The notes beneath the pieces are model-generated. The model saw only the letters and a program-made list of their open reading frames with translations, searched no databases and was not told the DNA's origin. Shown here one piece after another: positions 16,201-64,000 of a stretch of 64,000 nt of DNA. How positions within the stretch are numbered: the stretch's first letter is position 1; each line of letters begins with the position of its first letter. Position numbers and translations under genes: made by a program. Origin of the DNA: an archaeon (GTDB lineage: Archaea > Nanobdellota > Nanobdellia > Pacearchaeales > GW2011-AR1); the NCBI GenBank assembly GCA_043815245.1, contig JBDRJD010000014.1, forward strand, positions 14,986-78,985, read 5' to 3'.

Positions 16201-16457
16201 GAGCCACTAGAGGTAGTATTTGTGAAAGTAAAATCTGAAGCCGAACTACCGTTTGAATTTCCTACAAAATCTCCATCAAAAACAAAAGTGACCTGAGATA
16301 TATTTGCGTTTTCTGCTCCAATCGTGATATTAACAAAGTTGTTGCCAGTCATATTAACATAATCTGAACTTTGGATGGTAAAATTGGCTTCTAAGCCAAG
16401 GGAGCAACTAGGGAAGAAGATTAAGAAAAACAAAAATAATGTTAATTTTTTCACCAT
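13272..16457 (-). CDS. Large secreted surface (S-layer-like) glycoprotein with C-terminal membrane anchor
   Basis: 1061 aa with an N-terminal signal peptide (MVKKLTLFLFFLIFFPSCSLG). It has dozens of N-x-S/T sequons, an S/D/G-rich linker (SSSDDDDSSSSGGGGDDDSESD), and a C-terminal TM helix with a basic tail (LLWILGGAIIIVLIVIIVLAG...KKKDK). Confidence 0.6.
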   Translation of the reverse strand: MVKKLTLFLFFLIFFPSCSLGLEANFTIQSSDYVNMTGNNFVNITIGAENANISQVTFVFDGDFVGNSNGSSASDFTFTNTTSSGSGIIMFTNTTSSGIIENQTMQDFWFGITSLGIGDLTITINATAFDGTSNSSIIGLTANIPFYGYVKNESGNLQNGTNISIYQFILQQNGPPSEILEASTLTDENGSFSFLSLNGSAQMYILKLIHYNQSGYATKIGAILPAFPITLYYPTATNELSDMTLNGSTFYLQAAGTLRLNVTNSTGDSHKFGYMVYDEKVGFPVESQMLQSVSTVDVVVPAGKSYTVMFVREFSQFLGNQDCDGTFMNDTNCPTPPKSNSSLSVSEGQVLQVTQDLSITRIRLTGCIKISPNYNETSLTQYNLTSLIPKLQPWAGFIPPAHADQGDINLTADISYNLTLHPECNSSYHTNGIAWYNISLLGAVPYMLEFYAKNASSEAGKGGLYLAGFSNLTTNTTGADELNITLYKLLGSYYSGGLVSVNTSVLQINIQNETGGAITNSLNADVKVKNAAAGFGTVTYIIETITNGTFYLPILNNSNWVEVSVYSNDGPPIEKVLNLSKSEHNITLVSIDFSAGGDKGLREMNSTGDLVEINASSMPILMTFYRAGTSQVITSMNATNFNPLKALVAGSVDLEIEVIATGVKMKFNNFDMFSAKQPPMFAVIDNASLASSTGTWEFGNFVPSDVYDNVTLIIPYDASLVNESWNYNMSIPLLYQEDPNNPHQFSTAWNRSAGHTDTNLTDQFIEYNNSRYSGYLTSAGVVCDKGNGAAVCYMDTTNNRIQMEIPHFSGLSPSVTGAAPAVSSSSDDDDSSSSGGGGDDDSESDTTKVVRSWTNMYRGESYSMSVNSAKIGIEKIDLEVSSNTSSVKITVTGYTSRPSVVSKPKPGKIYGYIQILPVSLDDNLSRAMITLKLNDTWVTKEVGDKDNVAIFKFNEDSEEWGEVATRYKKKSGNYHYYEANVTSFSYFAISEKVVSSDTANDDSSTGDALGNETVDIEAQVQASKRNTLLWILGGAIIIVLIVIIVLAGIEYKDKIFKKKDK

Positions 16458-50050: not shown

Positions 50051-51679
50051 TTAGTTTCTTAAAATTTCATATACAAAAACACCGTCAAATATTTGCGACA
50101 GTTTAAAAGTTAGGCTGCCATATGATTTTTCTTGTTTTATGTCTTGTTGACCTGTATTAAAGTCTATAGTAGTATCCATAAAAGGAATCTCCCATTTTTG
50201 TTGAGATTCACGCTTCATCCAATCTGGATGGTTTGGTTCCCAAAATGAGATTAATAGAAATCTAATTGCTGGGTCTTCCTCTATTTTAGGTAGTACTTCT
50301 TCGAAAGTTGTATCTTGATTGTACTGCACTCCTACAAGCTCAGCAGGGCTAACCATCTGCCTTTCAGCATAGTAGGAGAATTGAGGAGTTAAAACAATAA
50401 GAGTTTTGTCTGATGGAGAGGTCCGATCCTTAATGTAAAATGAAGCGTCCTTAACCCCGTTGAAACTACTTATTTTAGACTTGATAATCGTATCAGCATG
50501 CTGAACTTCATAGAAAGCACCATAGGCTAGCAATACAAGGATAATGACCAGAGCAATCTGTTTATTATATTTTTTAAGGTTATCATAAATAAATATGGCC
50601 CCCTTTGCAAGGCAAATTAAGGAACCGAAAAGCAGCGGGAAGAACCATCTCGGCTCACCAATGTCAGTTGGATGTCTTTGGTAAAACAAAAAGTAGGACA
50701 ACACAATGATTATTGATAAAACTGCAAATAATTCACTTTTAATCTCACTTTTACCAACCTTTCTAAAGTAATCAAGTGATAAAAAAGTATTTATTAAAAG
50801 CAAAATGAATCCAAGCCAGAATAAATAAAGTAAAATGCTAAGTGTGGAACTGGTAAATGAACTAAAATATGCAGGAAATATTTGGAAGGGGAAGAGATTA
50901 AAGGGAATTTCAGTATGTAGATAGATTCCAGCCACCTCAGTAATATTAGAGGCAAATACAAATTTCTCTAAAAGAGAGAAACTTACTATAAACACGGCTA
51001 AAGCTATCCAGTTGTACTTATCCTTTAAGAGTGAAGACCACTTACGAGTAATTAGCATATAAAAAAAGAAAAAGAAACCAAAAAGAAAATACCCTCTCCT
51101 CATAGAGTAGGATAAAACGACAAATAATACAGTTAGTGGAACTGCCCAGTTAGGATTAATCTTCCCAAATATTTTTTCTCCGCCTTCGTATCCTTGCCAG
51201 AAGACATAGATCGCTAAAAGACCGAAGAATAATCCTGGGACACCTAAATGGAATCTCATTGAGTTAAATAACACTACCCAGAAAGTGGCCATTAAAAACG
51301 AGGCAATTAGCCCCACCTTTTTATCTTTAAACATTAAAACGGCAGTTGCATAGGTGAGCCAGATAAGTAGGATGGAAGGTAGAATCTCTAATATAAATTT
51401 TATGGCAGGGTCAGAGAACCCTATCTTAAATAAAGCCGCTACAAAATAAATAAATAGAGAATTATGGGCATCGGAAACCATCCAGTAGGTAGTGTACCCT
51501 CCAAGAGCTTTAGCATAGGCCATATAGTCCCCTTCATCCCACCATATTGCCTGGTCCTTTGTGAGAAAAAAATAATAAAGCCTGATAGCTACGCCTAAGA
51601 TAAATATTCCCAAAAAAATTCTATTATAGGGATCTTTTAACCAATTTCTGACACTCTCTTTTATTTTACTAATTTCCAT
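50051..51679 (-). CDS. GT-C fold glycosyltransferase (ArnT / PMT-like, GT39/GT83)
   Basis: A 542-aa polytopic protein with an N-terminal WWDEGDY loop motif after TM1 and a soluble C-terminal domain. Confidence 0.5.
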   Translation of the reverse strand: MEISKIKESVRNWLKDPYNRIFLGIFILGVAIRLYYFFLTKDQAIWWDEGDYMAYAKALGGYTTYWMVSDAHNSLFIYFVAALFKIGFSDPAIKFILEILPSILLIWLTYATAVLMFKDKKVGLIASFLMATFWVVLFNSMRFHLGVPGLFFGLLAIYVFWQGYEGGEKIFGKINPNWAVPLTVLFVVLSYSMRRGYFLFGFFFFFYMLITRKWSSLLKDKYNWIALAVFIVSFSLLEKFVFASNITEVAGIYLHTEIPFNLFPFQIFPAYFSSFTSSTLSILLYLFWLGFILLLINTFLSLDYFRKVGKSEIKSELFAVLSIIIVLSYFLFYQRHPTDIGEPRWFFPLLFGSLICLAKGAIFIYDNLKKYNKQIALVIILVLLAYGAFYEVQHADTIIKSKISSFNGVKDASFYIKDRTSPSDKTLIVLTPQFSYYAERQMVSPAELVGVQYNQDTTFEEVLPKIEEDPAIRFLLISFWEPNHPDWMKRESQQKWEIPFMDTTIDFNTGQQDIKQEKSYGSLTFKLSQIFDGVFVYEILRN

Positions 51680-53069
51680 TTTTTATTTTTTCTATAATCT
51701 TTGATGTAGATTTGCCAGTTGTTAATGGGACAAATTTAAACTCTCCGCAATATGACTCTACAGCTCTTCGCTCTTTTTGGTCCATAAGTTCAAGATTATA
51801 ATCTGAACCTTTTACATATATGTCAGGATTTAGTTCTATTAAGTACTTTTCTACAGATGATTCTGGGAATATGAGAATGTAATCTACAAATTCTAGGGAA
51901 GAAAGTATCTCGGCTCTTTCACTTTCAGACTGTAGGGGGCGTGAAGGACCTTTTAAAGCTCTGACAGAAGAATCAGAATTAAGACCAATAATTAATAAGT
52001 CTCCTAGCTTTTTTGCGTCTTGTAAGTATCTTACATGACCTACATGCAGTAAATCAAAACAACCATTGGTCCAGACTATTTTCCTTCCTTTTCTTTTTGC
52101 ATCTTGAGCTTGCTTTTTTAGCTCTTCGAGACTAATTACTTTCTTGAATTCTGAGAGAAACTTGTTTTTTAACTCACTGGAACTTACTGAATATGTGCCT
52201 TTCTTCTCTACAGCAATTCCAGCAGCATGATTAGCAATAATTGCTGCTTCTTCTAATGGGGAACTAGTTGCAAGCGCAAGTGCAAGTGTAGCTATAACTG
52301 TGTCCCCAGCGCCAGTTACATCATAAACTTCTTTTGCAAAAGTTGGAATCTCGGTAGTTTTATCTGAAAAAAGAATCATTCCTCTCTCTCCATGAGTTAT
52401 CAAGATGTTTGAGTTAAGCTCTTGTCTTAGCTTTTCTCCGGCCTGATAAATGTCTGAGCAGCCAGCCATTTCGAGGGCTTCTCTTTCATTTGACTTTATG
52501 AGTAAAACTCCATTGTATAGATTTTTATTTTTTGGCTTTGGATCTACAATAATCTTGCTTTTAAAATTAGATATTAAGGAGATAAGCTCTGAAGATATGG
52601 CACCTTTTGCATAATCTGAAAGGATTATTATATCAGATTCTGAGGCGTATTTAATTAATTGTTGTTTTACCTGATCTGAAAAGCTTTTTTCTGCGAATAT
52701 TTCTTTATCATACCTCAGTAATTGCTGGCCCTTTCCTATAATTCTTGTTTTTTGGATTGTGTCATATCTGTTGTCTAGAAGGTGTTTTATGTTTTTCCCA
52801 TCCATTAGCGTTTTCAGAATTTCGGATTCAGAGTCATTTCCACAAAAAGAAACAATAGTTGCTGATCCACCCAATGAAGCAATGTTGGAGGCAACGTTTC
52901 CGGCCCCTCCAATCTCGTGAAATTCTTTTTTTATATGAACGATTGGAACTGGCGCTTCTGGATTTATTCTTGTAACATCTCCTTCAAAATACTTGTCAAG
53001 CATAATGTCTCCTATGACTAGTACTCTTTTTTCTTTAAACTGATTAACGACCTCACTAAGCGCTTTCAT
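51669..53069 (-). CDS. hldE: Bifunctional D-glycero-beta-D-manno-heptose-7-phosphate kinase / heptose-1-phosphate adenylyltransferase (HldE/RfaE)
   Basis: Has an N-terminal PfkB ribokinase-like domain (VLVIGDIMLDKY...GAGDT) and a C-terminal cytidylyltransferase-like domain (WTNGCFDLLHVGHVRYL). Confidence 0.75.
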   Translation of the reverse strand: MKALSEVVNQFKEKRVLVIGDIMLDKYFEGDVTRINPEAPVPIVHIKKEFHEIGGAGNVASNIASLGGSATIVSFCGNDSESEILKTLMDGKNIKHLLDNRYDTIQKTRIIGKGQQLLRYDKEIFAEKSFSDQVKQQLIKYASESDIIILSDYAKGAISSELISLISNFKSKIIVDPKPKNKNLYNGVLLIKSNEREALEMAGCSDIYQAGEKLRQELNSNILITHGERGMILFSDKTTEIPTFAKEVYDVTGAGDTVIATLALALATSSPLEEAAIIANHAAGIAVEKKGTYSVSSSELKNKFLSEFKKVISLEELKKQAQDAKRKGRKIVWTNGCFDLLHVGHVRYLQDAKKLGDLLIIGLNSDSSVRALKGPSRPLQSESERAEILSSLEFVDYILIFPESSVEKYLIELNPDIYVKGSDYNLELMDQKERRAVESYCGEFKFVPLTTGKSTSKIIEKIKNGN

Positions 53070-53583
53070 TTTCTTGAAGTATTACCTTAACAGACTCATA
53101 TAAATCTTTTGTTTTTTGAATAGATAGTTTTTCGGTGTAGCGGGATTCGATTAGTACCGCCTTGCAACCTAACTTTTCGGCTGGTTTTATGTCTGTGAGT
53201 TTATCTCCAACAATCCAACATTTCTCGGGGGAGAGGCTAAATTTTTTTATTGAATCTAAAAATAATTTAGTTGAGGGTTTCCTACAATCACAGTTTTTAT
53301 CTGGATCATGCGGACAGTACAGAATATCATCGAATTCTATATTTTGTTTTTTGAAAACTTGGACCATATTCTCTGTTATTTTTAGGTAGTCCTGCTCTGA
53401 GTAGTACCCAAGGCCTATACCTGACTGATTTGTGATAATGATAAGTCTATAACCGGCTTTTTTAATTTTTTTCAGAGCCTCAAAAACTCTAGGAAGAATT
53501 TTAAAATCTTCAGTTTTATGGACATAGCCTCTATCTTCGTTAATCACACCGTCACGGTCTAAAAATACAGCTTTATTTTCCAT
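53056..53583 (-). CDS. gmhB: D-glycero-D-manno-heptose 1,7-bisphosphate phosphatase (GmhB, HAD-IIIA)
   Basis: Has VFLDRDGVINED and a CxC...C zinc site (CPHDPDKNCDCRKP). Confidence 0.7.
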   Translation of the reverse strand: MENKAVFLDRDGVINEDRGYVHKTEDFKILPRVFEALKKIKKAGYRLIIITNQSGIGLGYYSEQDYLKITENMVQVFKKQNIEFDDILYCPHDPDKNCDCRKPSTKLFLDSIKKFSLSPEKCWIVGDKLTDIKPAEKLGCKAVLIESRYTEKLSIQKTKDLYESVKVILQENESA

Positions 53584-53597
53584 TTTTAATAATTAGC

Positions 53598-54170
53598 TCA
53601 ATTAGCAACAAACTCATCTTCTATTAATTTAGCTAGAATATGAAGAATCAAAATATGAACTTCTTGAATCCTTGCAGTGTTTTGAACAGGAACAATTAAG
53701 TCTACTTCCCCTAAACCCTTCATTTTTCCACCGTCTCTTCCTAACAAGTTGATGACTTGCATGTTCCTTTCTCTTGCCTTTTCTATTGTTCTTAGTATAT
53801 TACCTGAATTACCAGAGGTACTAAGTCCAATAAGGATGTCTCCGGGGTTGCCAAGTGCTTCAACTTGCCTTGCAAAAACCACCTCATAGCCATAATCATT
53901 TGACAGGGCTGTAAGGTTGGAAGTGTCTACAGTCAAAGAAATGCAGGGAAGTCCTTTTCGCTCTGCTTCAAATCTTCCAACCAGTTCAGCAGTAAAGTGT
54001 TGAGCTTGTGCGGCGCTGCCACCATTACCACAGATAAGTAATTTATTCCCCTTTTTAATTGCTTCAATGATCATGTGGGATGCCTTTTCAATCAAGGGGA
54101 TAGAATCATAGATGGATTTTTGAGCTCCCAGGCTATCATTAATTAAACTTCTTATAATCTCTTGAGACAT
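53598..54170 (-). CDS. gmhA: Phosphoheptose (sedoheptulose-7-phosphate) isomerase GmhA (SIS domain)
   Basis: Has ICGNGGSAAQAQHFTAELVGRFEAERKGLPCISLT...STSGNS. Confidence 0.75.
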   Translation of the reverse strand: MSQEIIRSLINDSLGAQKSIYDSIPLIEKASHMIIEAIKKGNKLLICGNGGSAAQAQHFTAELVGRFEAERKGLPCISLTVDTSNLTALSNDYGYEVVFARQVEALGNPGDILIGLSTSGNSGNILRTIEKARERNMQVINLLGRDGGKMKGLGEVDLIVPVQNTARIQEVHILILHILAKLIEDEFVAN

Positions 54171-54183
54171 AAATATGTAAGAA

Positions 54184-55284
54184 TTAGAGGTTATTTAAAA
54201 TTTCTTGTGCTGAAATGCTACCTGCTAATTCTTCTGAATATTTCATAGAAAAAAAGTATTTTTCTAATAAGGGGGAAACAAGTTTCTTAGCAATTCCATA
54301 ATCTTCAATTTCCCAGGGGGGAGTTGAATAAAACAAGGCCACTGTTGGCTTTTTCAATAGGAGGGATAAATGTAGGGCTAGGGAATCTGTGGTGACAACT
54401 TTTTCGCATAAGTTGATTACTGCTGCAAATTCTCCAACTGTATTATCTGGATTATTTGAAGTAACTACTATCCCTGTAGATTTAAGCTCATTAATTAACT
54501 CGGGGATTTTGCCTCTTTCTTCTGGACCTCCTAAAAGTAAAACTTTATAGTTTTTGTTTAGCCCATTGATTAGTTCTTTAAGTTTCTCATTTGAAATGGC
54601 CTTAGAAGGCCATCTTTCCCCTGCTGAGAAATTTATTCCAATTAGTTTATCGGAGTCTGAGAGATTATTCATTTTCCTGAAATTATTAGCATACTGCTTG
54701 TCCTTGGTAGTCGCATGGAATACCATTTCTTCCCCATTGTATTCCAAATGACAGGCTTGAAAGATTAGCTGTTGGTATGTCTTTCTGTTAGACAGCTTAA
54801 CGTTGTGTAAAAAGGCAGTTTCAAGGTACTCTTCACTCCCTACATTAAAACAGGAAGTAGCCGCATTGTCAAAGTAATATCCATACTTTTCCTCAGCTTG
54901 AACAATATTTGCTAGAAGTGTCGCTGGAGTGGTTATTTCTAGTGAGAAAAGGATATCAAATTTTTCTTGTTGAATTCTTAGGATGTTTTCAGGATTGTAT
55001 GTCAGGAGTTTATCAATATGGGGGTTGTTTTCAAGTAGTTCTTTAGATTCTAGCATTGTAAACCAATAAATTAAGGCTTCATCACCGTATTTCTTTTTTA
55101 GGGCTTCTAGAATTGGGGTGGTTCTAAGAACGTCTCCCATAGCTCCTAGTTTAATAATGAGTATTTTTTTGGAGTGTGGAGAAGAGAATTTGCATTCTTC
55201 ACAGGACTTATAGCCTTCGCTAGTTAAGGTATCGCATGCATACTTCTCATTAAAAAACCTACATCTCGAGTTCCACTTAGTCAT
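54184..55284 (-). CDS. GT9 heptosyltransferase with N-terminal Cys-rich extension
   Basis: Has ILIIKLGAMGDVLRTTPILEAL, typical of the ADP-heptose:LPS heptosyltransferase family. About 40 N-terminal residues carry four Cys (CRFF...C...CEEC). Confidence 0.6.
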   Translation of the reverse strand: MTKWNSRCRFFNEKYACDTLTSEGYKSCEECKFSSPHSKKILIIKLGAMGDVLRTTPILEALKKKYGDEALIYWFTMLESKELLENNPHIDKLLTYNPENILRIQQEKFDILFSLEITTPATLLANIVQAEEKYGYYFDNAATSCFNVGSEEYLETAFLHNVKLSNRKTYQQLIFQACHLEYNGEEMVFHATTKDKQYANNFRKMNNLSDSDKLIGINFSAGERWPSKAISNEKLKELINGLNKNYKVLLLGGPEERGKIPELINELKSTGIVVTSNNPDNTVGEFAAVINLCEKVVTTDSLALHLSLLLKKPTVALFYSTPPWEIEDYGIAKKLVSPLLEKYFFSMKYSEELAGSISAQEILNNL

Positions 55285-55354
55285 GGGGATACTATATTTG
55301 GAGTGTTTAAAAATTTATGGAAAAGCTTAAAATAAGCTTAGATATAGGAGATAC

Positions 55355-55759
55355 ATGAAAAAAATATACATTGCGGGAAAATTATGTTCAGAAGAGGAAA
55401 GAGCCCTACTTGAGGGGGTGGATAAGTTCTGTAAGGCAGAGGGATTTGACACCTTTTTACCTCACAGGGATGTAGGGGTGATAGCGTTTAAAGAAGAGAT
55501 AAAAAGAGCGTTTAAAGAAGATGTAAAAGCTTTAGATGAATGTGATTTTGTACTTGCAGTATTAAACGGGAAACCTGGAAGCGGAACAGTATGGGAAATA
55601 GGTTATGCCTACTCAATCAAAAAGCCGATTATAGGATTAAAAACAGATAAAAAAGTTGAAGATTCAATACCGGAACTAAGTGCGATGGTTTTAGGCAGTG
55701 TTAAAATTTTACAAAGCTTTGAAGAGTTAAAAGAAGAGCTGTTCAATCTAAAGGGCTAG
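55355..55759 (+). CDS. Nucleoside 2-deoxyribosyltransferase-like protein
   Basis: Has IYIAGKL...FLPHRD...GTVWEIGYAYSIKKPIIGL, which fits the NDT fold motif. Confidence 0.45.
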   Translation: MKKIYIAGKLCSEEERALLEGVDKFCKAEGFDTFLPHRDVGVIAFKEEIKRAFKEDVKALDECDFVLAVLNGKPGSGTVWEIGYAYSIKKPIIGLKTDKKVEDSIPELSAMVLGSVKILQSFEELKEELFNLKG

Positions 55760-56651
55760 TTGATTTTGTTTTTTCTATACGCCATCCATCTTGATAGCCT
55801 TTTTTCCGGATTTTTAGATCATAAAAAGCAGTTAGATAAATGCAGAGTCTAGCTAAAAAAAGCAGGCATGTCCAATAAAACTCTTTTATGCTTCTGGGGT
55901 AGGATAAAGCAAAAAAAGTACCTTCTTTTATCTCATTAAAAAAAGACTTTGTTCTAGGCATATTTTTGGCAATTTTATTAAGATTTTCATGGGCTTTAAT
56001 ATTCCTAATTTTTTGAACCTTCCACTCTTTCCAATTATCAGGAGAAACAACATAAACTTTCGCCTGGGGAACATACTTTATTTTGTAGCCTTTTTCCCAA
56101 AATAAGTGAGGGATAATGCTATCTTCTGAAGTTTCTAAAGGAAACCCCTGCAATGCCCCATTTCTTATTGCAAACAAATAACCAGAACACTCAAAAAAAG
56201 CTCTTTTTTTAGAGATCTTCTCTCTTACTCTATGGATACCGTCAAACAATAAGTGGCTCCAAAAACCAAGAGCACTATTTTTTTTGTTTAAAGAAACAGG
56301 TCGGCCAGTTATGCAACCAATTTTTTTATCTTTAAATGCCTCGAAAATTGAAGCTACTGAATTTTCAGATACATAAACGTCTCCATCTGTGAGAATAATT
56401 AGATCAGATGTATCTTTAGAGTATATTTGTTCAAATAGAACATTTAGAGCATAACTTTTTCCTTCACCAGGATCCAAAAAAAACTCAACTTTCTTGTTTT
56501 TTATATTTTTCTTAATAAACTTTTCAGTTTCTGGAAAAGGGTCTACTACAATTATTTTAAAGGGTTGGTTGATCTTTTGGGATAAGAAGGAATTAATCGA
56601 CTTAAGAGTGGATTTCGGTTCCCCATATGCGGTTATGATTATGTGGATCAT
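55743..56651 (-). CDS. GT2 glycosyltransferase
   Basis: Begins MIHIIITAYGEPKSTLKSI, with ILTDGDVY (a DxD-like motif). Confidence 0.5.
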   Translation of the reverse strand: MIHIIITAYGEPKSTLKSINSFLSQKINQPFKIIVVDPFPETEKFIKKNIKNKKVEFFLDPGEGKSYALNVLFEQIYSKDTSDLIILTDGDVYVSENSVASIFEAFKDKKIGCITGRPVSLNKKNSALGFWSHLLFDGIHRVREKISKKRAFFECSGYLFAIRNGALQGFPLETSEDSIIPHLFWEKGYKIKYVPQAKVYVVSPDNWKEWKVQKIRNIKAHENLNKIAKNMPRTKSFFNEIKEGTFFALSYPRSIKEFYWTCLLFLARLCIYLTAFYDLKIRKKGYQDGWRIEKTKSTSPLD

Positions 56652-56707
56652 TTGTAAGACACCTACGGTTTCTTAACAATCAACTTCCCTTAAATATGTT
56701 TTGGGAA

Positions 56708-56911
56708 CTAAGGGGTATTAGCGTACTCTGTAACTAGCCGGATTATTACTTTTTCTTCTCCTGTTTTTTCGTTTTTTGCAGATACCCGGCATTTAGCTTT
56801 TCCTTGTTTAAGTCCTTTTTCTGAGAATTCTATTTGATTTACTATCAAAGTATCTCCGAATAGTATAATTTTATCTCCTGTTTTTATCTCTTTAAATTGT
56901 TTTTTATTCAT
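56708..56911 (-). CDS. Hypothetical small protein
   Basis: A 67-aa ORF with no recognisable motif. Confidence 0.25.
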   Translation of the reverse strand: MNKKQFKEIKTGDKIILFGDTLIVNQIEFSEKGLKQGKAKCRVSAKNEKTGEEKVIIRLVTEYANTP

Positions 56912-56961
56912 GCATTGCTGAACTTAGGAATATATATAAAGTTTTTTATATAGAAAGGTAG

Positions 56962-57654
56962 ATGAAGGAAGCAATTATTCTTGTTTCAGGTGGACTTGAC
57001 AGTTATGTTACTGCGTGGTATGCTAAAAAGGTAGGCAAAAGAAAAGTTAAGCTCTTATTTTTTGATTATGGGCAGAAGGGAATAGAAGAAGAGCTGTTTT
57101 GCACTCAAAAGCTAGCAGGAGAGTTAAAGGCTAGATTAAAGATAGTTGACATAAAATGGTTGGGAGAAATCAGCACTTCTCTGATAAATAAAAACAAGAA
57201 AACAGGAAAAACAGAGATAATTAAGTGGTATGTTCCGTGTAGGAACGCGGTATTTTTGACTGCTGCACTTGCATATGCTGAGTCAGAATTTCTGTCAAAA
57301 AACAAGAAGAGTGATATCTACCTAGGGGTAAAGTATGAAGGGGAAATAAGTTTTAATGACACTAAAGAGGCTTTTATAAGAAAAGTAAATGAATTAAGCA
57401 AGGTGGCTACACAAAAAGGAAGTTACAAGATAGTGACCCCCTTTATAAAAAAGGATAAAGAAGAAATTATAAATCTGGCAAAGAAAATGGGCCTTGATTT
57501 GGAGCAAACTTATAGTTGCTACAGGAGTAATGAGTTTGCGAGGGTTAACAATAAGAAAATTCCAATTCATTGTGGGGACTGTGCTGGTTGTAAGGCAAGA
57601 AAGAAAGGATTCAGGTTCTCAGAAATAAAAGATCCGAGCATATATGTAAAATGA
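56962..57654 (+). CDS. QueC/ExsB-family PP-loop ATP pyrophosphatase (QueC or WbpG-like glycan amidotransferase)
   Basis: Has an N-terminal ILVSGGLDSYV PP-loop and a C-terminal zinc site (CYRS...HCGDCAGCKARKKGF). Confidence 0.55.
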   Translation: MKEAIILVSGGLDSYVTAWYAKKVGKRKVKLLFFDYGQKGIEEELFCTQKLAGELKARLKIVDIKWLGEISTSLINKNKKTGKTEIIKWYVPCRNAVFLTAALAYAESEFLSKNKKSDIYLGVKYEGEISFNDTKEAFIRKVNELSKVATQKGSYKIVTPFIKKDKEEIINLAKKMGLDLEQTYSCYRSNEFARVNNKKIPIHCGDCAGCKARKKGFRFSEIKDPSIYVK

Positions 57655-58148
57655 ATGAAAAAATAGTTATTGTAAATAAAAAGGATGAAGTTATAGGTTA
57701 CAAAGACAGGGAGCTGGCTGAAAAAGATATCTACAGGGTTTCGGCATTATGGATTAAAAATTCTAAAAACGAGTTTTTATTAGCCAGAAGAGCTTATACA
57801 AAAAGCCATAGTCCAGGAAAATGGGGGCCAGCTGTTGCAGGAACTGTTGAAAAGGGGGAAACTTATAAAAAGAATATGATTAAAGAAGTTAAAGAAGAAC
57901 TTGGATTAGAAAGTTTAAATCTAGTAAAAGGTCCAAAGTTATATCATGAAAAAGAGCATAGGTATTTTGTGCAGTGGTTTTTATTAGTAATTGATAGAGA
58001 AATTTCCAAGTTTAGATTTGATAAAAAAGAGGTGGCTGAAATAAAGTGGTTTTCTAAAAAAGAATTTTTAAATCAAATAAATAGTAACCCGGAAGAGTTT
58101 ATCCCAAGTATTGAGGGATACTCCCATTTGTTTCAAGATGAAATTTGA
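57651..58148 (+). CDS. Nudix hydrolase
   Basis: Has the Nudix box GTVEKGETYKKNMIKEVKEELGL. Confidence 0.6.
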   Translation: MNEKIVIVNKKDEVIGYKDRELAEKDIYRVSALWIKNSKNEFLLARRAYTKSHSPGKWGPAVAGTVEKGETYKKNMIKEVKEELGLESLNLVKGPKLYHEKEHRYFVQWFLLVIDREISKFRFDKKEVAEIKWFSKKEFLNQINSNPEEFIPSIEGYSHLFQDEI

Positions 58149-58983
58149 CTATAAAAAGTACAATGAGGAAAAGTACGAGCAGGATTTTTGGACGATTAAT
58201 AGGTCAAAATATAAGTGGTTTAGCAACTATGTGAGACTGAAGATATTTAAAAAGTGGTGTTTAAGTGTAAAAAATAAAGGGGCATTTCTTGATGTTGGAG
58301 GAGGTGTAGGAAACTGGGCATTTCATTTTTTGGATTATTTTGAAAAAGTGATTGTGCTCGATATTTCAAAGAAAGCTCTGGAAAAAATTCCTGAAAAAGA
58401 GATAATAAAAAAGCAGGGGAGTGCTGATAAGATTCCTTTAAAGTCCAAGACAGTGGACTGCATTCTTTTAGCAGATGTATTGGAACATATACATCCTTCT
58501 GATTTGAATAAAGTTATGAAAGAGCTAAAAAGAGTTTTAAAAGATAATGGGAGGATAGTGATTCAAACTTCACTCTATGGTTATGGGATAGGGTTGGTTT
58601 TTAAGCGTGTTTTCAAAAAAATGAACGGTAGGTTGATGAAGTCTGAGATGAAGGAGGGGCATTTAAACAGGCTGAAATTTAATGAGATTAAAAGCCTTGC
58701 AAAAAAGAATGGGTTAATAATTGAAGACTATCTTTTTTACAGTATAATTTTTCAGCAACTAACTGACTTTATCAAAGACTTAACAGCAAAAGCCATGAGC
58801 AAGGAGAGTAAGCATATAAGAAAGGGTCAGGAATTAAAAGATAGGTTGAAAAAAGTTGAAAAACCAAGTAAGGTATTTAGAATGATATTTGGAACTTTCT
58901 CAAGAATATCTTACTTAGATATCATACTATTTGGGAAAATTTTGCCAGGACAGGGAATCTTCTTAAAACTAAGAAAGAATTAG
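58111..58983 (+). CDS. Class I SAM-dependent methyltransferase
   Basis: Has FLDVGGGVGNW (motif I) and ADVLEHI. The start may be the internal Met at 58138. Confidence 0.6.
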   Translation: MRDTPICFKMKFDYKKYNEEKYEQDFWTINRSKYKWFSNYVRLKIFKKWCLSVKNKGAFLDVGGGVGNWAFHFLDYFEKVIVLDISKKALEKIPEKEIIKKQGSADKIPLKSKTVDCILLADVLEHIHPSDLNKVMKELKRVLKDNGRIVIQTSLYGYGIGLVFKRVFKKMNGRLMKSEMKEGHLNRLKFNEIKSLAKKNGLIIEDYLFYSIIFQQLTDFIKDLTAKAMSKESKHIRKGQELKDRLKKVEKPSKVFRMIFGTFSRISYLDIILFGKILPGQGIFLKLRKN

Positions 58984-60096
58984 TTTCTCTATTTTGCCGA
59001 TTAGAATATCCCATCTAAACTCTTCAGCTTTTATTCTCGCTTGTTTTTGTATTTCTTTTATTCTTCGTAAGTTTTTTTTAGCTAAAATAAATAAAATCAC
59101 TTCAGATAGATTTTTTTCATCTCCGGTTTTAAACAAAAAACCGTCTTTCTTATCAGAGATTATCTCCTTTCCTGCTTTATTATCTGAAGAGATGACTATT
59201 TTACCGACAGCCATTGCTTCCACTAGGGCTTGGGGCATTGCCTCAGAAATAGATGGTAAAACAAAAATGTCAGTATTCCTCAAGGCATCAACACGCTCCC
59301 GTAGGGAGTATACTGGGGGGAAGAACCTTAGATTCCTGATTTTTAATTTGGAGGCTAAATTTTTAAGGTTACTAGTGCAAGGCTGTTCTTGGGGCCCAGT
59401 TATTTTAAGCTTTAGTTGGGGATACTCGGTTGAAACCAATTTAAAGGATTTGATAAGTGTTTCAAGATTTTTTATGTTTGCTATTCTTCCAAAAAATAAA
59501 ATTGAGTCCCCATTAAATTGCGAAATTTTTGGTTTAAAAAATTCTTTTGGGATGCCATTTGGAACATAACTTATTTTTTCTTTCTTTGCTCCGAGAGCCA
59601 AGAGAAAGGGGGCCTCCCACTTAGTAATTGTGATAATCCTGTCAAACTCATTTAGTATTCTCCTAGCAATAAATTTATCATAAATTGAAACTGCCACTTT
59701 AGAAAAAAATGAACGTGTTGAGTTCCCTTCAATAAATGGGGCGTGCGTCACAAGAAAAACTTTGGCATTTATTTTTTTCGCTATTTTTAGTGCTTTAGTA
59801 GTATGCAGGTGCCTGTAACTGTGGGCAATGATGATATCCGGCCTTAACTTAATTGCTTCTGCAGTAAAGTCCCAGGACATAAAACTTTCCCCCCCTAATT
59901 TTTTAGTTGGAAATCGCTTTATTTTAACTCTTCCTAGAGTATCTTCAGGTAAAGCAAGCTCGCCAGAACCTTTTGTAATATCTGAGGAAAAAATATAAAC
60001 CTCATATTTTTTAGATAAAAGCTCTGCTTCTTGTTTGACTCTTTGCCAAACACCGCAAACTCCTGCTGAATAGTTGGTTAGTTCTAAAATTCTCAT
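58969..60096 (-). CDS. GT4 (GT-B) glycosyltransferase
   Basis: Has the C-terminal SEAMPQALVEAMAVGKIVISSD motif. Confidence 0.6.
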   Translation of the reverse strand: MRILELTNYSAGVCGVWQRVKQEAELLSKKYEVYIFSSDITKGSGELALPEDTLGRVKIKRFPTKKLGGESFMSWDFTAEAIKLRPDIIIAHSYRHLHTTKALKIAKKINAKVFLVTHAPFIEGNSTRSFFSKVAVSIYDKFIARRILNEFDRIITITKWEAPFLLALGAKKEKISYVPNGIPKEFFKPKISQFNGDSILFFGRIANIKNLETLIKSFKLVSTEYPQLKLKITGPQEQPCTSNLKNLASKLKIRNLRFFPPVYSLRERVDALRNTDIFVLPSISEAMPQALVEAMAVGKIVISSDNKAGKEIISDKKDGFLFKTGDEKNLSEVILFILAKKNLRRIKEIQKQARIKAEEFRWDILIGKIEKLILS

Positions 60097-61161
60097 TTAT
60101 GATTCTCCTTTTAATAATGCATCTATCGCTTTTTTAACTTTTTCTGTAGGTATTTTTCTGACTTTTTTGTTAAAGATAAGGGTATAGTTATGGGGGTGCT
60201 GCCAGGGATGCCATGTTTCAGGATAAGTGCAAAATAATGCAACTGTTTTAGTTTTAGATGCGGCTGCGAAATGGATAGCTGAAGTATCTATGCTGACTAG
60301 AATTTTAGACTTTGAAATAAGGGAAGCATATTCATTAATTTTTAACTTCCCGGTGAAGTCATAAACTTTTTCAGTTTTGTCTAAATTACTAATTATATTT
60401 TTAGCAATAAGTGAATCTTCGCTTGAACCGCCGATTATTACTGGGAGGGCATGTTTTTTGTTAAGATGATTTACAATTTCCGCAAACTTTTTCTCGTCCC
60501 ATAAATAATTTTTCCCTGCCAAGGAACGCTTGCCCGGATGAATTATTGCAAAATTCCTAATTTTGTTTTTCCTGAGGAGCGAGTCAACTTTCAGCCCATC
60601 TTTTTTAGAAGGAAAAGTCTCCATTAAAATATCTTTGGAGGTAACCTTCAAGTACTTAGCAGGAAAAAGATTCTCTTTAACTTTGTGAACTTCACGTAAA
60701 GAAGGAAAGATACACCTAGTTAAAAAGAAGGAGTTAATATTAGCATAAGCGGTCTGAGCGTAACCAATTCTGTAAGTAATCTTAGCTTTGAGAAGTGTTA
60801 TAAACATTTTAAGTGAGCAGGGGTAGATCGTAATTGCTAATTGATATTTTTGATGAATCTTCTTTTCAAAAGCGGGATAGTTCTCAAAAACTAGTATTTT
60901 GTTAATATGAGGATTATTTTGAAGGATAGTCTCCATTCCGGACCTTACAGCGACATCGATTTTATAACTTTTGGAGAGGCACTTGATTAGGGGGGTTGTC
61001 GCGAGTAAGTCACCTATAAAACCAAGATTAACAATTAGAATAGACTTGATTGGACTTTTAGAAATTTTTTTGAACTTAAATGGAGAGAATATAAGCCATA
61101 CTAAGTAGTTAATTAATTGGAAAGTCTTTCTTCTTATTTTTTTAAGTGTCTCGGGGGACAT
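60097..61161 (-). CDS. GT9 heptosyltransferase (second copy)
   Basis: Has ILIVNLGFIGDLLATTPLIKCL and IDTSAIHFAAASKTKTVALF. Confidence 0.6.
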   Translation of the reverse strand: MSPETLKKIRRKTFQLINYLVWLIFSPFKFKKISKSPIKSILIVNLGFIGDLLATTPLIKCLSKSYKIDVAVRSGMETILQNNPHINKILVFENYPAFEKKIHQKYQLAITIYPCSLKMFITLLKAKITYRIGYAQTAYANINSFFLTRCIFPSLREVHKVKENLFPAKYLKVTSKDILMETFPSKKDGLKVDSLLRKNKIRNFAIIHPGKRSLAGKNYLWDEKKFAEIVNHLNKKHALPVIIGGSSEDSLIAKNIISNLDKTEKVYDFTGKLKINEYASLISKSKILVSIDTSAIHFAAASKTKTVALFCTYPETWHPWQHPHNYTLIFNKKVRKIPTEKVKKAIDALLKGES

Positions 61162-61215
61162 ATATGTTCGAATGTGATAAGGTTTATATAGGTTTTTAGT
61201 ATCTGCCTTTTATAA

Positions 61216-62322
61216 ATGGTAGAAAGATTCTATAATCTAGATCCGAGAAAAATAAAGATAGTTAACTTGATTCCTATTGGGCGATCCAGCTCTATATTTT
61301 TACAAGGCTTATTGGATTGGCATCCAGAAATAATCACAATTTTAGGAAATTTCTATCCTGAGAAAAGTGACTTGCAGAGTAGACGGTTTGAGGTTATTGC
61401 CAAGAAGATATATGGGAAGATAAATGCGATGACTAAACATTATAATACTACCTATGATTTGGGAAGAAACTTTCCTGAGGGGAAATTTGCCGGTTACTTG
61501 AAAGAGTATACAGATGTCTTTGGAATGAGTATCGGGTCTTTGTTTATTGGGGCACACTATGCATATGCTAGGCATTATAAAAGGGATATTTCCAAGATAA
61601 AGTATATTCTTGCCCATGCGCATGGGGCGACTTTATTTCACCAAATTGTAAAAGACTTTCCCAAGCAGAAACTGATTTTTACAATAAGAGATCCTAGAGC
61701 TAATTACCTTTCATATAAAAAAATTGGAATATTGGTTCACGGAACACTATATCAATATGAAAATTATCTTTTGTATAGAAAACTAAAAAAAATAGGATAT
61801 CCAATAATTATAATTAGGCATGAGGATATGCATACAAAATATGAAGAGGTTAAAAAGGGACTAATTGAATTTTTAGGTATTAAAAAGTCCAAGAGTTTAG
61901 ATTCCTGTAGTTTTTTTAATCTGGCTTATGATGGTAGTGAGAGTAAAATAAGCTCAAGTCAAAATCTTTCTGATACGCGGCCTAATAAAAAGTTCGTGAA
62001 TGAGAAGTGGAAATCAGATTTGTCTACCTCAGAATTAAACCTAATTCAGTTTATTTTTCGTAAAATGATGGAGGAATTTAAGTATCGGAAGTATTATTCA
62101 GGGGGGGAAATAGTAATAAAATTTCTTAATACTGATGTTAGGAGCTTATCGAGAAGCAATTTAGAATCTAAAAAAGGAATAAAAAAATTTCTGCTCACTT
62201 TTGCAAGGTTTATTTATCAAATTCCCATACTTGGAATAATATTAATTGATATTAGTTTATTGCTGTACTACTTTTTTATGATCATTCTAGCAATTCTAAA
62301 AGTTATTGTGAAAAAAGTTTAG
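61216..62322 (+). CDS. Sulfotransferase-family protein with C-terminal TM helix
   Basis: Has a 5'-PSB-like IPIGRSSSIF and a 3'-PB-like FTIRDPRANYLSYKK. The C-terminus is hydrophobic (ILGIILIDISLLLYYFFMIILAIL). Confidence 0.45.
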   Translation: MVERFYNLDPRKIKIVNLIPIGRSSSIFLQGLLDWHPEIITILGNFYPEKSDLQSRRFEVIAKKIYGKINAMTKHYNTTYDLGRNFPEGKFAGYLKEYTDVFGMSIGSLFIGAHYAYARHYKRDISKIKYILAHAHGATLFHQIVKDFPKQKLIFTIRDPRANYLSYKKIGILVHGTLYQYENYLLYRKLKKIGYPIIIIRHEDMHTKYEEVKKGLIEFLGIKKSKSLDSCSFFNLAYDGSESKISSSQNLSDTRPNKKFVNEKWKSDLSTSELNLIQFIFRKMMEEFKYRKYYSGGEIVIKFLNTDVRSLSRSNLESKKGIKKFLLTFARFIYQIPILGIILIDISLLLYYFFMIILAILKVIVKKV

Positions 62323-63769
62323 AGATAAGCTTTTCATTAATATAATCTTCACATCCTGCTCTTTCAGGATGCCACATTACACCTAAGATGTCTAGGGTGG
62401 GGTGATAAACTCCCTCTATATATCCGTCGGAAGTTGTTGCAAAGCTTCTAAGCTCTCTTGAAAGTACTTCTGTAGAAACGCAATGATTATGAAAAGAGTT
62501 TACTGTAAAATTTTCATTGCCTAAAAATGTCTGAAATCCGGAATCGGCTATTTCTATAGGATGTGTTTTAGCGACATGATCTTCTTTACCAGCTCCTTGC
62601 AGGAGTTTTCCCCCAAAATAAACATTAAGAAATTGCATTCCTCTGCACTGGCACAGAACAGGTAACTTATGTTTAATTGCAAAATCTAGAATTTTCTTCT
62701 CTGTTGAATCGCGAAAATCTGAATGGTCAGAAGATTCAGATCTCAGACCATGGTATAAAGTGGGATTTACATCATTGCCTCCAGAGAGGATAAACCCGGA
62801 AACATCCAGTTCCTTAAGATATTCTTCTACATCTTGAAGAGTATTTGGTACAGGAATGAGGATCAATCCGTATTTAGAGTAATATTTTGCATAGTCTTGT
62901 TCTAAAGCATCTTTATCAGCCCCTTTATCGGCGCGGACTACTCTTTGAGAGATAGCAATTTTTTTTGTTGTGTTTTGTATCTCATCTAACTTAACAAATC
63001 TTTTTAAGATACCTTGTTGCAGCCATTTTGTATAGTTTTCATAGTCCTCATTTGTATCAAACTCCAGCCAGCCGCGCTTAATCAAAATTGGTGAAACTTT
63101 GTAACCCTCATTAACCAAGGCTTGAAGTATGCAGGTCATATAAGCTTTTTTAAATGACTTGGATCTTAACCAGGGGGAGTCTTTATCCCAAAATTTTTCT
63201 CTATTCTTATGATAAACTTTTTTTAGGGCTTCTGCTCCAGATTTTGAGAATTTGATTAGGCCCACATAACGCACTTTAGCTTGGCTTCTTGAGCAAGAAG
63301 TGTTCCCAAGGTCTACAACCTCTCCATCTCTATCAATGATAAGACTTTCCATATCTTCTTCTGGGTTTGGCATCCTAGCACTCCAATAGTCCCAGTAGTC
63401 TTCATCGATTGTAACACCAATATCTACTTTTGAGGCTAGTACTTTATCAAGAACTTTTTTTTCGTAGAGGATATCAGAGTAACAAACTAAAATATCATCA
63501 TTAAACTCAGGCTCGGCTTGCATTAAGGAAGCTACCATGTTAGTTTCTTCATAAAGAGGGTTATGGTAGTATTTTACTCCAGAAATCTGGATTTTCTCTT
63601 TCATATATCCTGTAACAATGATAATGTCCTTTATGCCCGCTTCACGAAGAAGCTCGACCTGCCGTTCAATTAGAGGCTGGCCATTAAAGTTTAGCATGCC
63701 TTTTGGGAGATTTTCTGTGTATTTGTTTAATCGAGTTCCCTTACCTGCTGCAAGAATTATTGCTTTCAT
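62303..63769 (-). CDS. Fusion protein: N-terminal sugar-phosphate nucleotidyltransferase + C-terminal class-I glutamine amidotransferase (peptidase C26/PuuD-like)
   Basis: Has N-terminal MKAIILAAGKGTRLN. The C-terminus has ILSGGNDVNPTLYHG...LCQCRGMQFLNVYFGG...VNSFHNHCV (a Cys-His GATase1 triad pattern). Confidence 0.55.
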   Translation of the reverse strand: MKAIILAAGKGTRLNKYTENLPKGMLNFNGQPLIERQVELLREAGIKDIIIVTGYMKEKIQISGVKYYHNPLYEETNMVASLMQAEPEFNDDILVCYSDILYEKKVLDKVLASKVDIGVTIDEDYWDYWSARMPNPEEDMESLIIDRDGEVVDLGNTSCSRSQAKVRYVGLIKFSKSGAEALKKVYHKNREKFWDKDSPWLRSKSFKKAYMTCILQALVNEGYKVSPILIKRGWLEFDTNEDYENYTKWLQQGILKRFVKLDEIQNTTKKIAISQRVVRADKGADKDALEQDYAKYYSKYGLILIPVPNTLQDVEEYLKELDVSGFILSGGNDVNPTLYHGLRSESSDHSDFRDSTEKKILDFAIKHKLPVLCQCRGMQFLNVYFGGKLLQGAGKEDHVAKTHPIEIADSGFQTFLGNENFTVNSFHNHCVSTEVLSRELRSFATTSDGYIEGVYHPTLDILGVMWHPERAGCEDYINEKLISKLFSQ

Positions 63770-63770
63770 A

Positions 63771-64000
63771 TTAACTTATCCCTGTAATTTGCTGAGTAGC
63801 ACAATTTAATTCAATTTTTTTAAAATTACGAACATAATCGAAAATTGTAGAGCCACAACCAATGGCTGCTGGAAGGTTGAATTCTGCGCATCTAATTGAC
63901 ATGTGAGAGGCCACACCCCCATATTTTGTTAATAATCCTTTGATGTTATGGCCAAACACCCAGTCATAACCAGGATCGGCGTTGGTAATTAGAACAATCT
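63771..64000 (-). CDS. PEP-utilising-enzyme swivel-domain protein, C-terminal end (5' partial; gene continues past window end)
   Basis: Ends ...YGGVASHMSIRCAEFNLPAAIGCG, which resembles the phospho-histidine mobile domain (GGRTSHAAIIARE.GIPAVVG) of PEP synthase / PPDK / RPH-like enzymes. Confidence 0.4.
   Translation of the reverse strand, partial: IVLITNADPGYDWVFGHNIKGLLTKYGGVASHMSIRCAEFNLPAAIGCGSTIFDYVRNFKKIELNCATQQITGIS

Follow-up and report, generated by a model that had tools for sequence, protein, structure and literature searches.

What does a protein do in which a nucleotidyltransferase (NTase) is joined to a class I glutamine amidotransferase (GATase) domain, and which of the genes around it belong with it? 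The question is raised by the window analysed here, a stretch of 64,000 nucleotides (nt) of archaeal DNA (contig JBDRJD010000014.1 of assembly GCA_043815245.1, positions 14,986 to 78,985), in which a fusion protein of this kind is encoded within a glycosylation island (Table 1). A preliminary description of the window took the NTase to act on sugars and the GATase to supply ammonia to a QueC-like PP-loop enzyme encoded a few genes away, the product being an amidated sugar. The open reading frames (ORFs) that it named are present and the domains that it guessed are confirmed by Pfam. However, the evidence given below points to a different pathway. It is likely that the fusion is a bifunctional counterpart of two proteins of Campylobacter jejuni, Cj1416 and Cj1417, and serves a pathway to a phosphoramidate donor within the archaeal island.

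Domains and junction of the fusion protein

Pfam places NTP_transf_3/NTP_transferase (PF12804, PF00483) over residues 1-113 or beyond and Peptidase_C26/GATase over residues 281-470 (PF07722, E 2e-35). An AlphaFold model with a mean predicted local distance difference test (pLDDT) score of 90.5 contains two globular domains, and a linker of low confidence joins them at about residues 262-268. The proposed NTase-GATase architecture is thus borne out by both the profile matches and a confident model.

The N-terminal domain carries the nucleotidyltransferase motif GKGTRL at residues 9-14. Compared with the sequences of the PDB it matched LicC (1jyk, E 1.3e-17), and a structural search with Foldseek put PntC at the top, with LicC at a template modelling (TM) score of 0.80-0.81 and RmlA at about 0.65. 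It is also 60-69% identical to stand-alone NTases of about 265 amino acids (aa) that adjoin kinase and GATase genes. The domain is therefore predicted from its modelled fold to be a cytidylyltransferase of LicC/PntC type for small head groups and not a sugar-1-phosphate NTase as first supposed. Its nearest solved folds are those of LicC and of PntC-AEPT from Treponema denticola (Tde1415; 6pd1/6pd2). PntC-AEPT too is a fusion with the enzyme of an adjacent step, in its case a transaminase, and the substrates of PntC and LicC differ from that proposed here, being 2-aminoethylphosphonate and phosphocholine.

The catalytic triad of the C-terminal domain is intact. In alignments with PuuD and 3fij their catalytic residues are matched by Cys375 (in CRGMQ) and by His467-Pro-Glu469, so that the Cys-His pair, on which the preliminary description had made its proposal depend, is present. 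Foldseek returned SpuA, PuuD and 3fij at TM scores of about 0.77. PuuD and SpuA (6vtv, 7d4r/7d50/7d53) are the nearest solved folds and share the Cys-His-Glu triad; they form a glutamyl-thioester and act on gamma-glutamyl-gamma-aminobutyrate and gamma-glutamyl-polyamines, whereas the substrate proposed here is a gamma-glutamyl phosphoramidate linked to a nucleotide. When the domain was scanned alone against NCBIfam, the best match was NF045546, the gamma-glutamyl-CDP-amidate hydrolase family of Cj1417, with 110 bits (E 1.6e-31) against an equivalog cutoff of 250, and the runner-up was PuuD with 53 bits. The name given to the whole protein by NCBI, 'gamma-glutamyl-gamma-aminobutyrate hydrolase family protein', is misleading. 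A homolog, P0004, is named 'L-glutamine-phosphate cytidylyltransferase' by JGI.

The source of the window is a metagenome-assembled genome (MAG) and in the closest relatives NTase and GATase are encoded by two ORFs that overlap, so a frameshift or a lost stop codon arising in sequencing or assembly might be thought to have produced the fusion. In the unfused relatives the NTase ends in '...INL' and a stop codon, and overlaps the hydrolase start 'MKRIGISQRV...' at the position occupied by the linker in the window. In the window '...FVKLD' is joined in frame to 'IAISQRV...' by 8 residues. Fusions of the same order but with different linkers are found in two independent assemblies (P0002, 63% identity, and P0013, 43%), which argues against an artefact, and fusions in the reverse order or with a third domain are common. 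An assembly error is thus very improbable, and the junction would have arisen when two genes lying side by side were simply joined in frame.

The upstream kinase fragment and the predicted pathway

The gene upstream of the fusion is cut by the end of the window. Its stop codon (63771-63773) lies 1 nt before the fusion start codon and its minus-strand frame runs out of the window. The 75 residues that remain contain a PEP-utilizers mobile domain (PF00391, E 1.2e-10) with the GGxxSH phospho-histidine motif. They are 84%, 81% and 80% identical to the C-termini of the kinases of about 790 aa in the related loci L083, L080 and L091, respectively, and in every related locus the corresponding gene encodes a large protein with PPDK_N and PEP-utilizers domains. 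Two of these proteins pass the NCBIfam model NF004508/PRK05849 over their full length (986 bits in L013 and 855 bits in L008; cutoff 501), and the kinase of one relative carries the name 'glutamine kinase' in its source.

The C. jejuni enzymes L-glutamine kinase (Cj1418), CTP:phosphoglutamine cytidylyltransferase (Cj1416), gamma-glutamyl-CDP-amidate hydrolase (Cj1417) and cytidine diphosphoramidate kinase (Cj1415) make 3'-phospho-CDP-amidate from glutamine, ATP and CTP (PMC11800397, PMC6429109). We infer that the archaeal proteins perform the same reactions. The LicC-like domain of the fusion would convert L-glutamine phosphate and CTP to CDP-L-glutamine. The PuuD-like domain, using Cys375, His467 and Glu469, would then cleave the gamma-glutamyl amide bond to give L-glutamate and cytidine diphosphoramidate. 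A Cj1415-type enzyme resembling adenosine-5'-phosphosulfate (APS) kinase would convert the latter to 3'-phospho-CDP-amidate. To judge from the gene order of the relatives, this kinase, a methyltransferase and the rest of the glutamine kinase are to be expected just beyond position 64000. Finally, the membrane-anchored protein of sulfotransferase fold encoded next to the fusion would be the best candidate for placing the phosphoramidate on one of the sugars of the glycan that the AglB/STT3 island makes. For the steps before transfer the chemistry is that of the published C. jejuni work, and the domain identities, residues and gene linkage were observed here. The enzymes that make the donor for O-methyl phosphoramidate (MeOPN) in C. 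jejuni were reportedly the work of Taylor and Raushel in 2017-2018.

Two suggestions of the preliminary description are close to this scheme. That the nitrogen comes from glutamine is very probable. Hydrolysis of a gamma-glutamyl conjugate also fits a hydrolase of the C26/PuuD type whose best match is the Cj1417 family, except that the conjugate would be that of CDP-amidate and not of a sugar.

Fusions and gene linkage in related loci

About 90 related loci were collected, 80 of them fetched with a profile of the NTase alone, and their ORFs were scored with home-made profiles. The loci are mutually related, so that the Fisher p-value given below is indicative only. Nearly all loci of sufficient length show the kinase, the hydrolase and the NTase together. 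Two of the loci (L003 and L006) are from Methanosarcinales MAGs.

The search for the same fusion in other genomes, as the preliminary description had advised, was successful. Public protein sets contain the two domains fused in about a dozen proteins, in either order. The window, P0002 and P0013 have the NTase before the GATase, and P0003-P0009, L007, L008 and L013 have the GATase before the NTase. When 1.84 billion representatives were searched exhaustively, at least three triple fusions of 1265-1288 aa (P0290, P0353 and P0370) were also returned, in which GATase, NTase and kinase form a single chain. The same search found large families of stand-alone NTases and of stand-alone hydrolases. 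Where the domains are not fused, they are encoded by adjacent separate genes or by genes with one to three others between them. The fusions mirror the local gene order and must therefore have arisen at least twice. The earlier statement that the architecture is undescribed holds for the literature searched but not for the databases, where the dozen fusions are deposited and one homolog already bears the JGI name given above.

The gene order in L083, L091 and L080 is APS-kinase-like gene, methyltransferase, kinase, NTase, GATase. The next gene in L083 and L091 is a convergent ortholog of the sulfotransferase-like gene of the window, and in L080 it is a second methyltransferase. Even in the distant locus L013 (33% identity) an overlapping operon contains an APS-kinase-like gene (PRK05541, 155 bits, cutoff 127), the kinase, a GATase-NTase fusion, a Sulfotransfer_1 gene and a methyltransferase.

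Other domains are also found attached to these proteins. P0085 (845 aa) has the hydrolase joined to a PEP-utilizers domain. Among NTase relatives, P0021 and P0022 (about 725 aa) are fused to a domain of the type I phosphodiesterase/alkaline-phosphatase family and P0268/P0287/P0310 (about 450 aa) to an unannotated C-terminal domain of about 190 aa; the identity of these extended relatives reaches 65%.

Two types of module

After de-duplication, 41 loci in which the kinase gene is complete were counted, and they fall into two types (type I, n=17; type II, n=24). Each co-occurrence profile was based on 1-7 sequences, and many of the loci are incomplete, so that absences in these counts are lower bounds. 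The kinase is about 790 aa long in type I and 960-1000 aa long in type II, where an additional CTP_transf_like domain is found at its N-terminus. The APS-kinase-like gene is found in 15/17 type I and 4/24 type II loci, the sulfotransferase-like gene in 11/17 and 3/24, and a methyltransferase of the type seen in L013 in 12/17 and 0/24. The reverse is seen with CDP-alcohol phosphotransferases, which are present in 14/24 type II loci and 0/17 type I loci, and ATP sulfurylase, present in 3/24 and 0/17, respectively.

By sequence, the module of the window belongs to type I, since its kinase fragment is most like those of L083, L080 and L091 (80-84%), its sulfotransferase-like gene has orthologs in L083, L091 and L090, and its NTase precedes its hydrolase, as is the order in type I. 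The counts for type II suggest a different delivery of the phosphoramidate, possibly straight from CDP-amidate to an alcohol or a lipid. The extra domain of the type II kinases is about 200 aa long and resembles RfaE domain II; type II loci include L002-L008, L017, L021 and L032, and an example is L008 6955-9948. Three protein families that neighbour type II modules, one SGNH-like (about 430 aa), one histidine-phosphatase-like (about 300 aa) and one of about 290 aa, have no counterpart in the window.

Besides the limits of the co-occurrence profiles, several points weigh against the C. jejuni-like pathway. The window holds just 75 residues of the kinase, and within its 64 kb there is no ORF of Cj1415 type (Walker A). 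No curated model specific to Cj1416 was among the matches listed, and the hydrolase falls below the cutoff of its best family. The comparison with C. jejuni is one of family models, folds and gene content. The literature searched contains no report of a phosphoramidate-bearing glycan from any archaeon.

Given the low hydrolase score, kinase, NTase and hydrolase might instead make some other CDP-activated product from another amide substrate or another nucleotide, for example for a lipid head group. The CDP-alcohol phosphotransferases and the extra CTP_transf_like kinase domain of type II would suit such a product, as would the NTase relatives fused to phosphodiesterase-family domains (P0021 and P0022). 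However, the window groups with type I, whose gene content matches C. jejuni cj1415-cj1420 item for item, and it lies in an AglB/STT3 glycan island. We regard another product as improbable and retain the route to a phosphoramidate donor.

The sulfotransferase-like protein and the transfer step

Less expected than the core pathway is its operon-level tie to proteins of sulfotransferase fold. The sulfotransferase-like gene of the window (product MFH1500734.1) is convergent with the fusion and overlaps its 3' end by 20 nt. The Pfam match of its product is marginal (22.5 bits), but the core of the AlphaFold model (pLDDT about 85) gave, with Foldseek, 50 top PDB matches that are all sulfotransferases using 3'-phosphoadenosine-5'-phosphosulfate (PAPS). 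The 5'-phosphosulfate-binding (5'-PSB) loop GRSSS (22-26) and the 3'-phosphate-binding (3'-PB) segment RDPRANYLS (158-166) are conserved, and both fold and motifs are thus those of a sulfotransferase. The protein belongs to a small family of 5 members, none of them named, in which GRxS (22-25), RDPR (158-161), H136 and HE (202-203) are invariant. In L083, L091 and L090 orthologs (E about 1e-86) are encoded at the same place and likewise convergently, and a 5'-PSB-type loop and RDP....S also occur in the sulfotransferase-like proteins of L001, L012 and L013, which are otherwise very divergent.

In 12 of the 21 loci with a sulfotransferase-like gene this gene is within 150 nt of a core gene and in 6 more it is one methyltransferase away, making 18/21. 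Its co-occurrence with the APS-kinase-like gene in type I gave a Fisher p of about 8e-5 before de-duplication. The donor made by Cj1415 in C. jejuni is a 3'-phospho-nucleoside diphosphate (PMC11800397) and so is structurally parallel to PAPS, which makes transfer of the phosphoramidate the most economical role for the protein. We put the chances that it has this role at about even. The chemistry that places the P-N group on the sugar is biochemically unsettled (PMC12409886). The literature searched gave no statement as to whether Cj1421 and Cj1422, the known MeOPN transferases, are sulfotransferase-like, which gives the proposal less weight.

The same motifs suit PAPS equally well, and the fold and both phosphate-binding sites are typical of PAPS enzymes. 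The core genes could therefore lead to CDP-amidate while their neighbour is an ordinary PAPS sulfotransferase acting on the same glycan, with the phosphoramidate transferred by another enzyme or directly from CDP-amidate. The CDP-alcohol phosphotransferases of the type II loci show that other routes of transfer exist. An ortholog in L094, 47% identical, stands in a cluster of glycan genes, and the module is absent from the surrounding 7-10 kb or so. ATP sulfurylase is encoded in L012, L031, L035 and L043, which are loci with sulfotransferase-like genes, and L004 has CysD/CysN-APS kinase beside the module without a sulfotransferase-like gene. The presence of sulfate-activation genes near some modules therefore makes ordinary sulfation a live alternative for this step. 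On the other hand, neither ATP sulfurylase nor CysD was found within 10 kb in any type I locus (0/17), the window has no sulfate-activation gene, and the adjacency to the core genes is kept across several very divergent sulfotransferase subfamilies. These facts, with the linkage to the APS-kinase-like gene and the likeness of the Cj1415 donor to PAPS, leave ordinary sulfation the less likely role, though a serious one, and phosphoramidate transfer the preferred one.

LicD, sulfatase/alkaline-phosphatase-family, Phosphodiest and HIT proteins were also considered as transferases and set aside, as none is enriched near the module. A pairing of another kind is present in L012 (10109-13227), where downstream of an NTase-GATase fusion in the order of the window there are genes for a HIT-family protein and for an 835-aa protein that joins ATP sulfurylase to Phosphodiest (PF01663). 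This pairing is intriguing, as nucleoside phosphoramidates are hydrolysed by HIT enzymes and ammonolysis of APS can yield AMP-NH2.

The QueC-like gene and its conserved block

The QueC-like gene had been linked to the fusion through sugar amidation. In that scheme the NTase would make a nucleotide sugar, the QueC-like enzyme would adenylate an acetamido or carboxyl group on it, and the ammonia for an amidated or acetamidino sugar would come from the GATase. WbpG, WbuX and PseA are PP-loop ATPases of glycan loci that need an ammonia donor, and WbpG-type sugar amidotransferases do fall, as had been stated, in the PF06508 superfamily network (PMC13329287). The QueC-like gene and the fusion are about 4.6 kb apart in one glycosylation island, the former stands amid glycosyltransferases and not beside queD/queE, and in L008 both genes occur within 6 kb of each other. 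Archaeal N-acetyl-sugar amidotransferases of AglXYZ type are also PP-loop ATPases that need an ammonia donor.

Several results stand against this scheme. The QueC-like gene was found within 10 kb of the module in 1/41 de-duplicated loci, and in three of the four other QueC-like loci, with L008 the exception, kinase, NTase and GATase are absent within 8 kb. The constant partner of the fusion is the kinase, at times in the same polypeptide. The GATase is in the C26/PuuD branch and resembles Cj1417, not an ammonia-channelling subunit, and the NTase is of the LicC/PntC kind. The QueC-like protein gave no match of TIGR03573/WbuX type in an NCBIfam scan at E <= 0.01. Unlike WbpG, WbuX and PseA, it has 230 aa (versus 300-400 aa), a QueC-type C-terminal Zn cluster and no partner of HisH/HisF type, and it does not conform to the pattern given for PF06508 Cluster 5, which has the motifs SGGxDSxY, CxxC(x)6CxC and YDC in that order (PMC13329287). 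The co-occurrence counts therefore leave a functional link between the QueC-like gene and the fusion unsupported, even though the catalytic pair of the GATase is intact and queD/queE are not adjacent, and we consider sugar amidation very unlikely. The QueC-like gene is not part of the phosphoramidate module and belongs to a conserved block of its own.

The suspicion that this gene is no housekeeping QueC was a reasonable one. The protein scores 132 bits with TIGR00364, below the trusted cutoff of 150.3, although its NCBI name is 7-cyano-7-deazaguanine synthase, and 45 bits against B. subtilis QueC (3bl5). Its subfamily is DPANN-wide, with more than 160 homologs at 45-67% identity. SGGLDS, VPCRN and SCY...CGDCAGC are kept, corresponding to the SGGxDS, VPxRN, Cys-Tyr and CxxCxxC of canonical QueC, and are conserved across 116 DPANN homologs; the spacing from the first Cys to the Zn cluster is 18 residues in the window, versus C(x)8 in canonical QueC. 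Two signatures are changed. YxQxHxxE reads YGQKGIEE in the window, with the His replaced. In place of YPDC the window has FNDT, and the consensus of the family has F-K-D-T; the aromatic residue and Asp are retained, Pro and Cys are not. E. coli QueC requires Y35 and Y131, and the canonical signature set was established experimentally (Libby et al. 2026, PMC13329287). The protein resembles the uncharacterised Cluster 4 of PF06508 in the same study, which has a variant YGQ...E, CxxCxGC, a PF05014 neighbour and a PfkB-domain gene nearby. This likeness is one of motifs and neighbours only, and the window protein differs in its DPANN origin and in its association with GT2 and GT9 glycosyltransferases (GTs) and a 67-aa EF-P-like ORF.

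The block consists of GT9, nucleoside-2-deoxyribosyltransferase-like (NDT-like, PF05014), GT2, ORF of about 67 aa and QueC-like gene, in the same order and orientation in the window (54184-57654), L008 (16894-20444), L009 (5233-8690), L010 (5211-8690) and L011 (5239-8690). It is kept although the QueC-like proteins of the five genomes are 54-65% identical, and genes for ADP-heptose synthesis adjoin it. None of queD, queE, folE and tgt is among the larger ORFs of the window or within 8-10 kb in L008-L011, and no genes of the 7-deazaguanine pathway were seen in the window. We know of no pathway that accounts for this combination of genes.

The 67-aa ORF, between the GT2 and QueC-like genes, has a weak EFP_N match (E 5.8e-4, 20.2 bits, cutoff 23). 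It is present in L008-L011 too, with an invariant loop KG-x-KQG-[KR]-x-K-x-R where EF-P/eIF5A bear the modified residue. The QueC-family proteins Cap9 and QatC modify proteins, and the EF-P-like protein could thus be a substrate or carrier of the QueC-like enzyme. A role in defence like that of QatC/Cap9 was rejected on account of the score with the QatC model (34.6 bits, cutoff 280) and the glycan-gene neighbourhood.

Other genes of the window

The G+C content of the window is 33-38% and the closest relatives are MAGs of Woesearchaeota/Nanoarchaeota (DPANN). The glycosylation island spans 39660-64000. It encodes AglB/STT3, a GPT-type transferase, a flippase, GT2 and GT4 glycosyltransferases, a B12-radical-SAM enzyme, UDP-GlcNAc 2-epimerase, a large membrane protein, HldE, GmhB, GmhA and two GT9 enzymes (Table 1).

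Table 1. Coordinates of features in the 64,000-nt window, with the basis of each assignment.
Feature	Position	Strand	Basis or remark
Kinase fragment, L-glutamine kinase type (Cj1418-like), C-terminal 75 codons	63774..64000	-	Gene cut by window end
Fusion protein, 488 aa, NTase + Peptidase_C26/GATase	62303-63769	-	Pfam, AlphaFold
Fusion N-terminal domain, residues 1-262, LicC/PntC-like cytidylyltransferase	62984..63769	-	Proposed Cj1416 function
Fusion C-terminal domain, residues 269-488 + stop, Peptidase_C26/PuuD-type hydrolase	62303..62965	-	Proposed Cj1417 function
Sulfotransferase-fold protein with C-terminal membrane helix	61216-62322	+	Pfam Sulfotransfer_1/_3, marginal; AlphaFold fold
GT9, heptosyltransferase-like	60097-61161	-	PF01075, E 1.2e-18; TIGR02201 98.6 bits, below cutoff
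GT4 glycosyltransferase, island context	58969-60096	-	PF00534 + PF13439
Class I S-adenosylmethionine-dependent methyltransferase	58111-58983	+	PF08241
Nudix hydrolase	57651-58148	+	PF00293, E 8e-18
QueC-family PP-loop/Zn protein	56962-57654	+	PF06508, 161 bits
67-aa ORF, EF-P/aIF5A domain I-like	56708-56911	-	Weak PF08207 EFP_N match
GT2 of QueC-like block	55743-56651	-	Pfam
NDT-like protein	55355-55759	+	PF05014
GT9 of QueC-like block	54184-55284	-	Pfam
ADP-heptose genes GmhA, GmhB, HldE	51669-54170		

The GT9 gene beside the sulfotransferase-like gene is divergent from it. Given this neighbour and the heptose pathway, a heptose may be imagined as one possible acceptor sugar, though this is speculative. 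One MeOPN acceptor in C. jejuni is a heptose (PMC11800397).

The Nudix and methyltransferase genes had been noted as neighbours of the fusion. The start of the Nudix gene overlaps the QueC-like stop codon, and the methyltransferase gene is translationally coupled to the Nudix gene. This coupling to the QueC-like gene is seen in the window alone, and the pair is absent from the four other QueC-like loci and from the module loci. No Nudix counterpart was found in the approximately 90 related loci, and a single-sequence profile of the methyltransferase matched one other locus (L056). The methyltransferase of the window is not of the type that accompanies the phosphoramidate module. As the two genes do not recur with either module, they were rejected as parts of the pathway.

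A 542-aa polytopic membrane ORF at 50051-51679 (-) and a 1061-aa ORF at 13272-16457 (-) have no Pfam match; the former is located where related loci have PMT_2 (ArnT-like) glycosyltransferases. A Taw1/TYW1-like radical-SAM gene for wyosine formation at 8144-9118 (+) concerns tRNA modification and is related neither to the fusion nor to the QueC-like gene.

Relation to known systems

The core is a known pathway. Homologs bear KEGG-style names in JGI data, and a preprint of 2024 predicted the same three enzymes on a Borg, an extrachromosomal element of Methanoperedens, where genes 308-311 were assigned to MeOPN synthesis by structure (bioRxiv 10.1101/2024.11.05.622173). The Borg cluster, itself a prediction only, shares with the window an archaeal setting, a glycoconjugate region and Cj1418-, Cj1417- and Cj1416-like enzymes. 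Unlike in the window, the Borg enzymes are encoded by separate genes, and a sulfotransferase-like or APS-kinase-like partner is not discussed there.

With the MeOPN system of C. jejuni the window and its relatives share a cluster of the same three or four enzyme families, the Cj1417 family and PRK05849 as best curated matches, an APS-kinase-like gene and a methyltransferase in the closest relatives, and a surface-glycan locus with a heptose pathway. The differences are that the Cj1416 and Cj1417 functions would reside in one polypeptide, that the host is a DPANN archaeon, that the locus is an AglB/STT3 island and not a capsule locus, that the candidate transferase has a sulfotransferase fold, that the hydrolase scores below the equivalog cutoff and that the pathway of the window is known from genes alone. 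Relative to the literature searched, the fused architectures, the spread among DPANN archaea, the split into two types and the operon-level pairing with sulfotransferase-fold proteins are new.

A wider reading can be put forward tentatively, as somewhat short of an even chance. DPANN archaea, and probably those bacteria of the candidate phyla radiation (CPR) that have the operon, may bear a (methyl) phosphoramidate on their surface or N-linked glycans, transferred by a sulfotransferase-fold enzyme adapted to 3'-phospho-cytidine-5'-diphosphoramidate, which mimics PAPS in structure, whereas type II modules may transfer it directly from CDP-amidate, perhaps to lipid.

The fusions in two orders, together with the triple fusions, are an independent genomic confirmation that the Campylobacter trio acts as one unit. 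The pairing of a sulfotransferase-fold protein with an APS-kinase-like protein provides a concrete candidate for the transfer step and, if true, would be a new type of reaction for this fold. Glutamine kinase has been called specific to C. jejuni in a review (PMC9561416) and, according to another, Campylobacter alone is so far known to carry MeOPN (PMC6429109). If the present reading is true, the glutamine-kinase route to phosphoramidates would be widespread in uncultured DPANN archaea and their relatives, inside their glycosylation islands.

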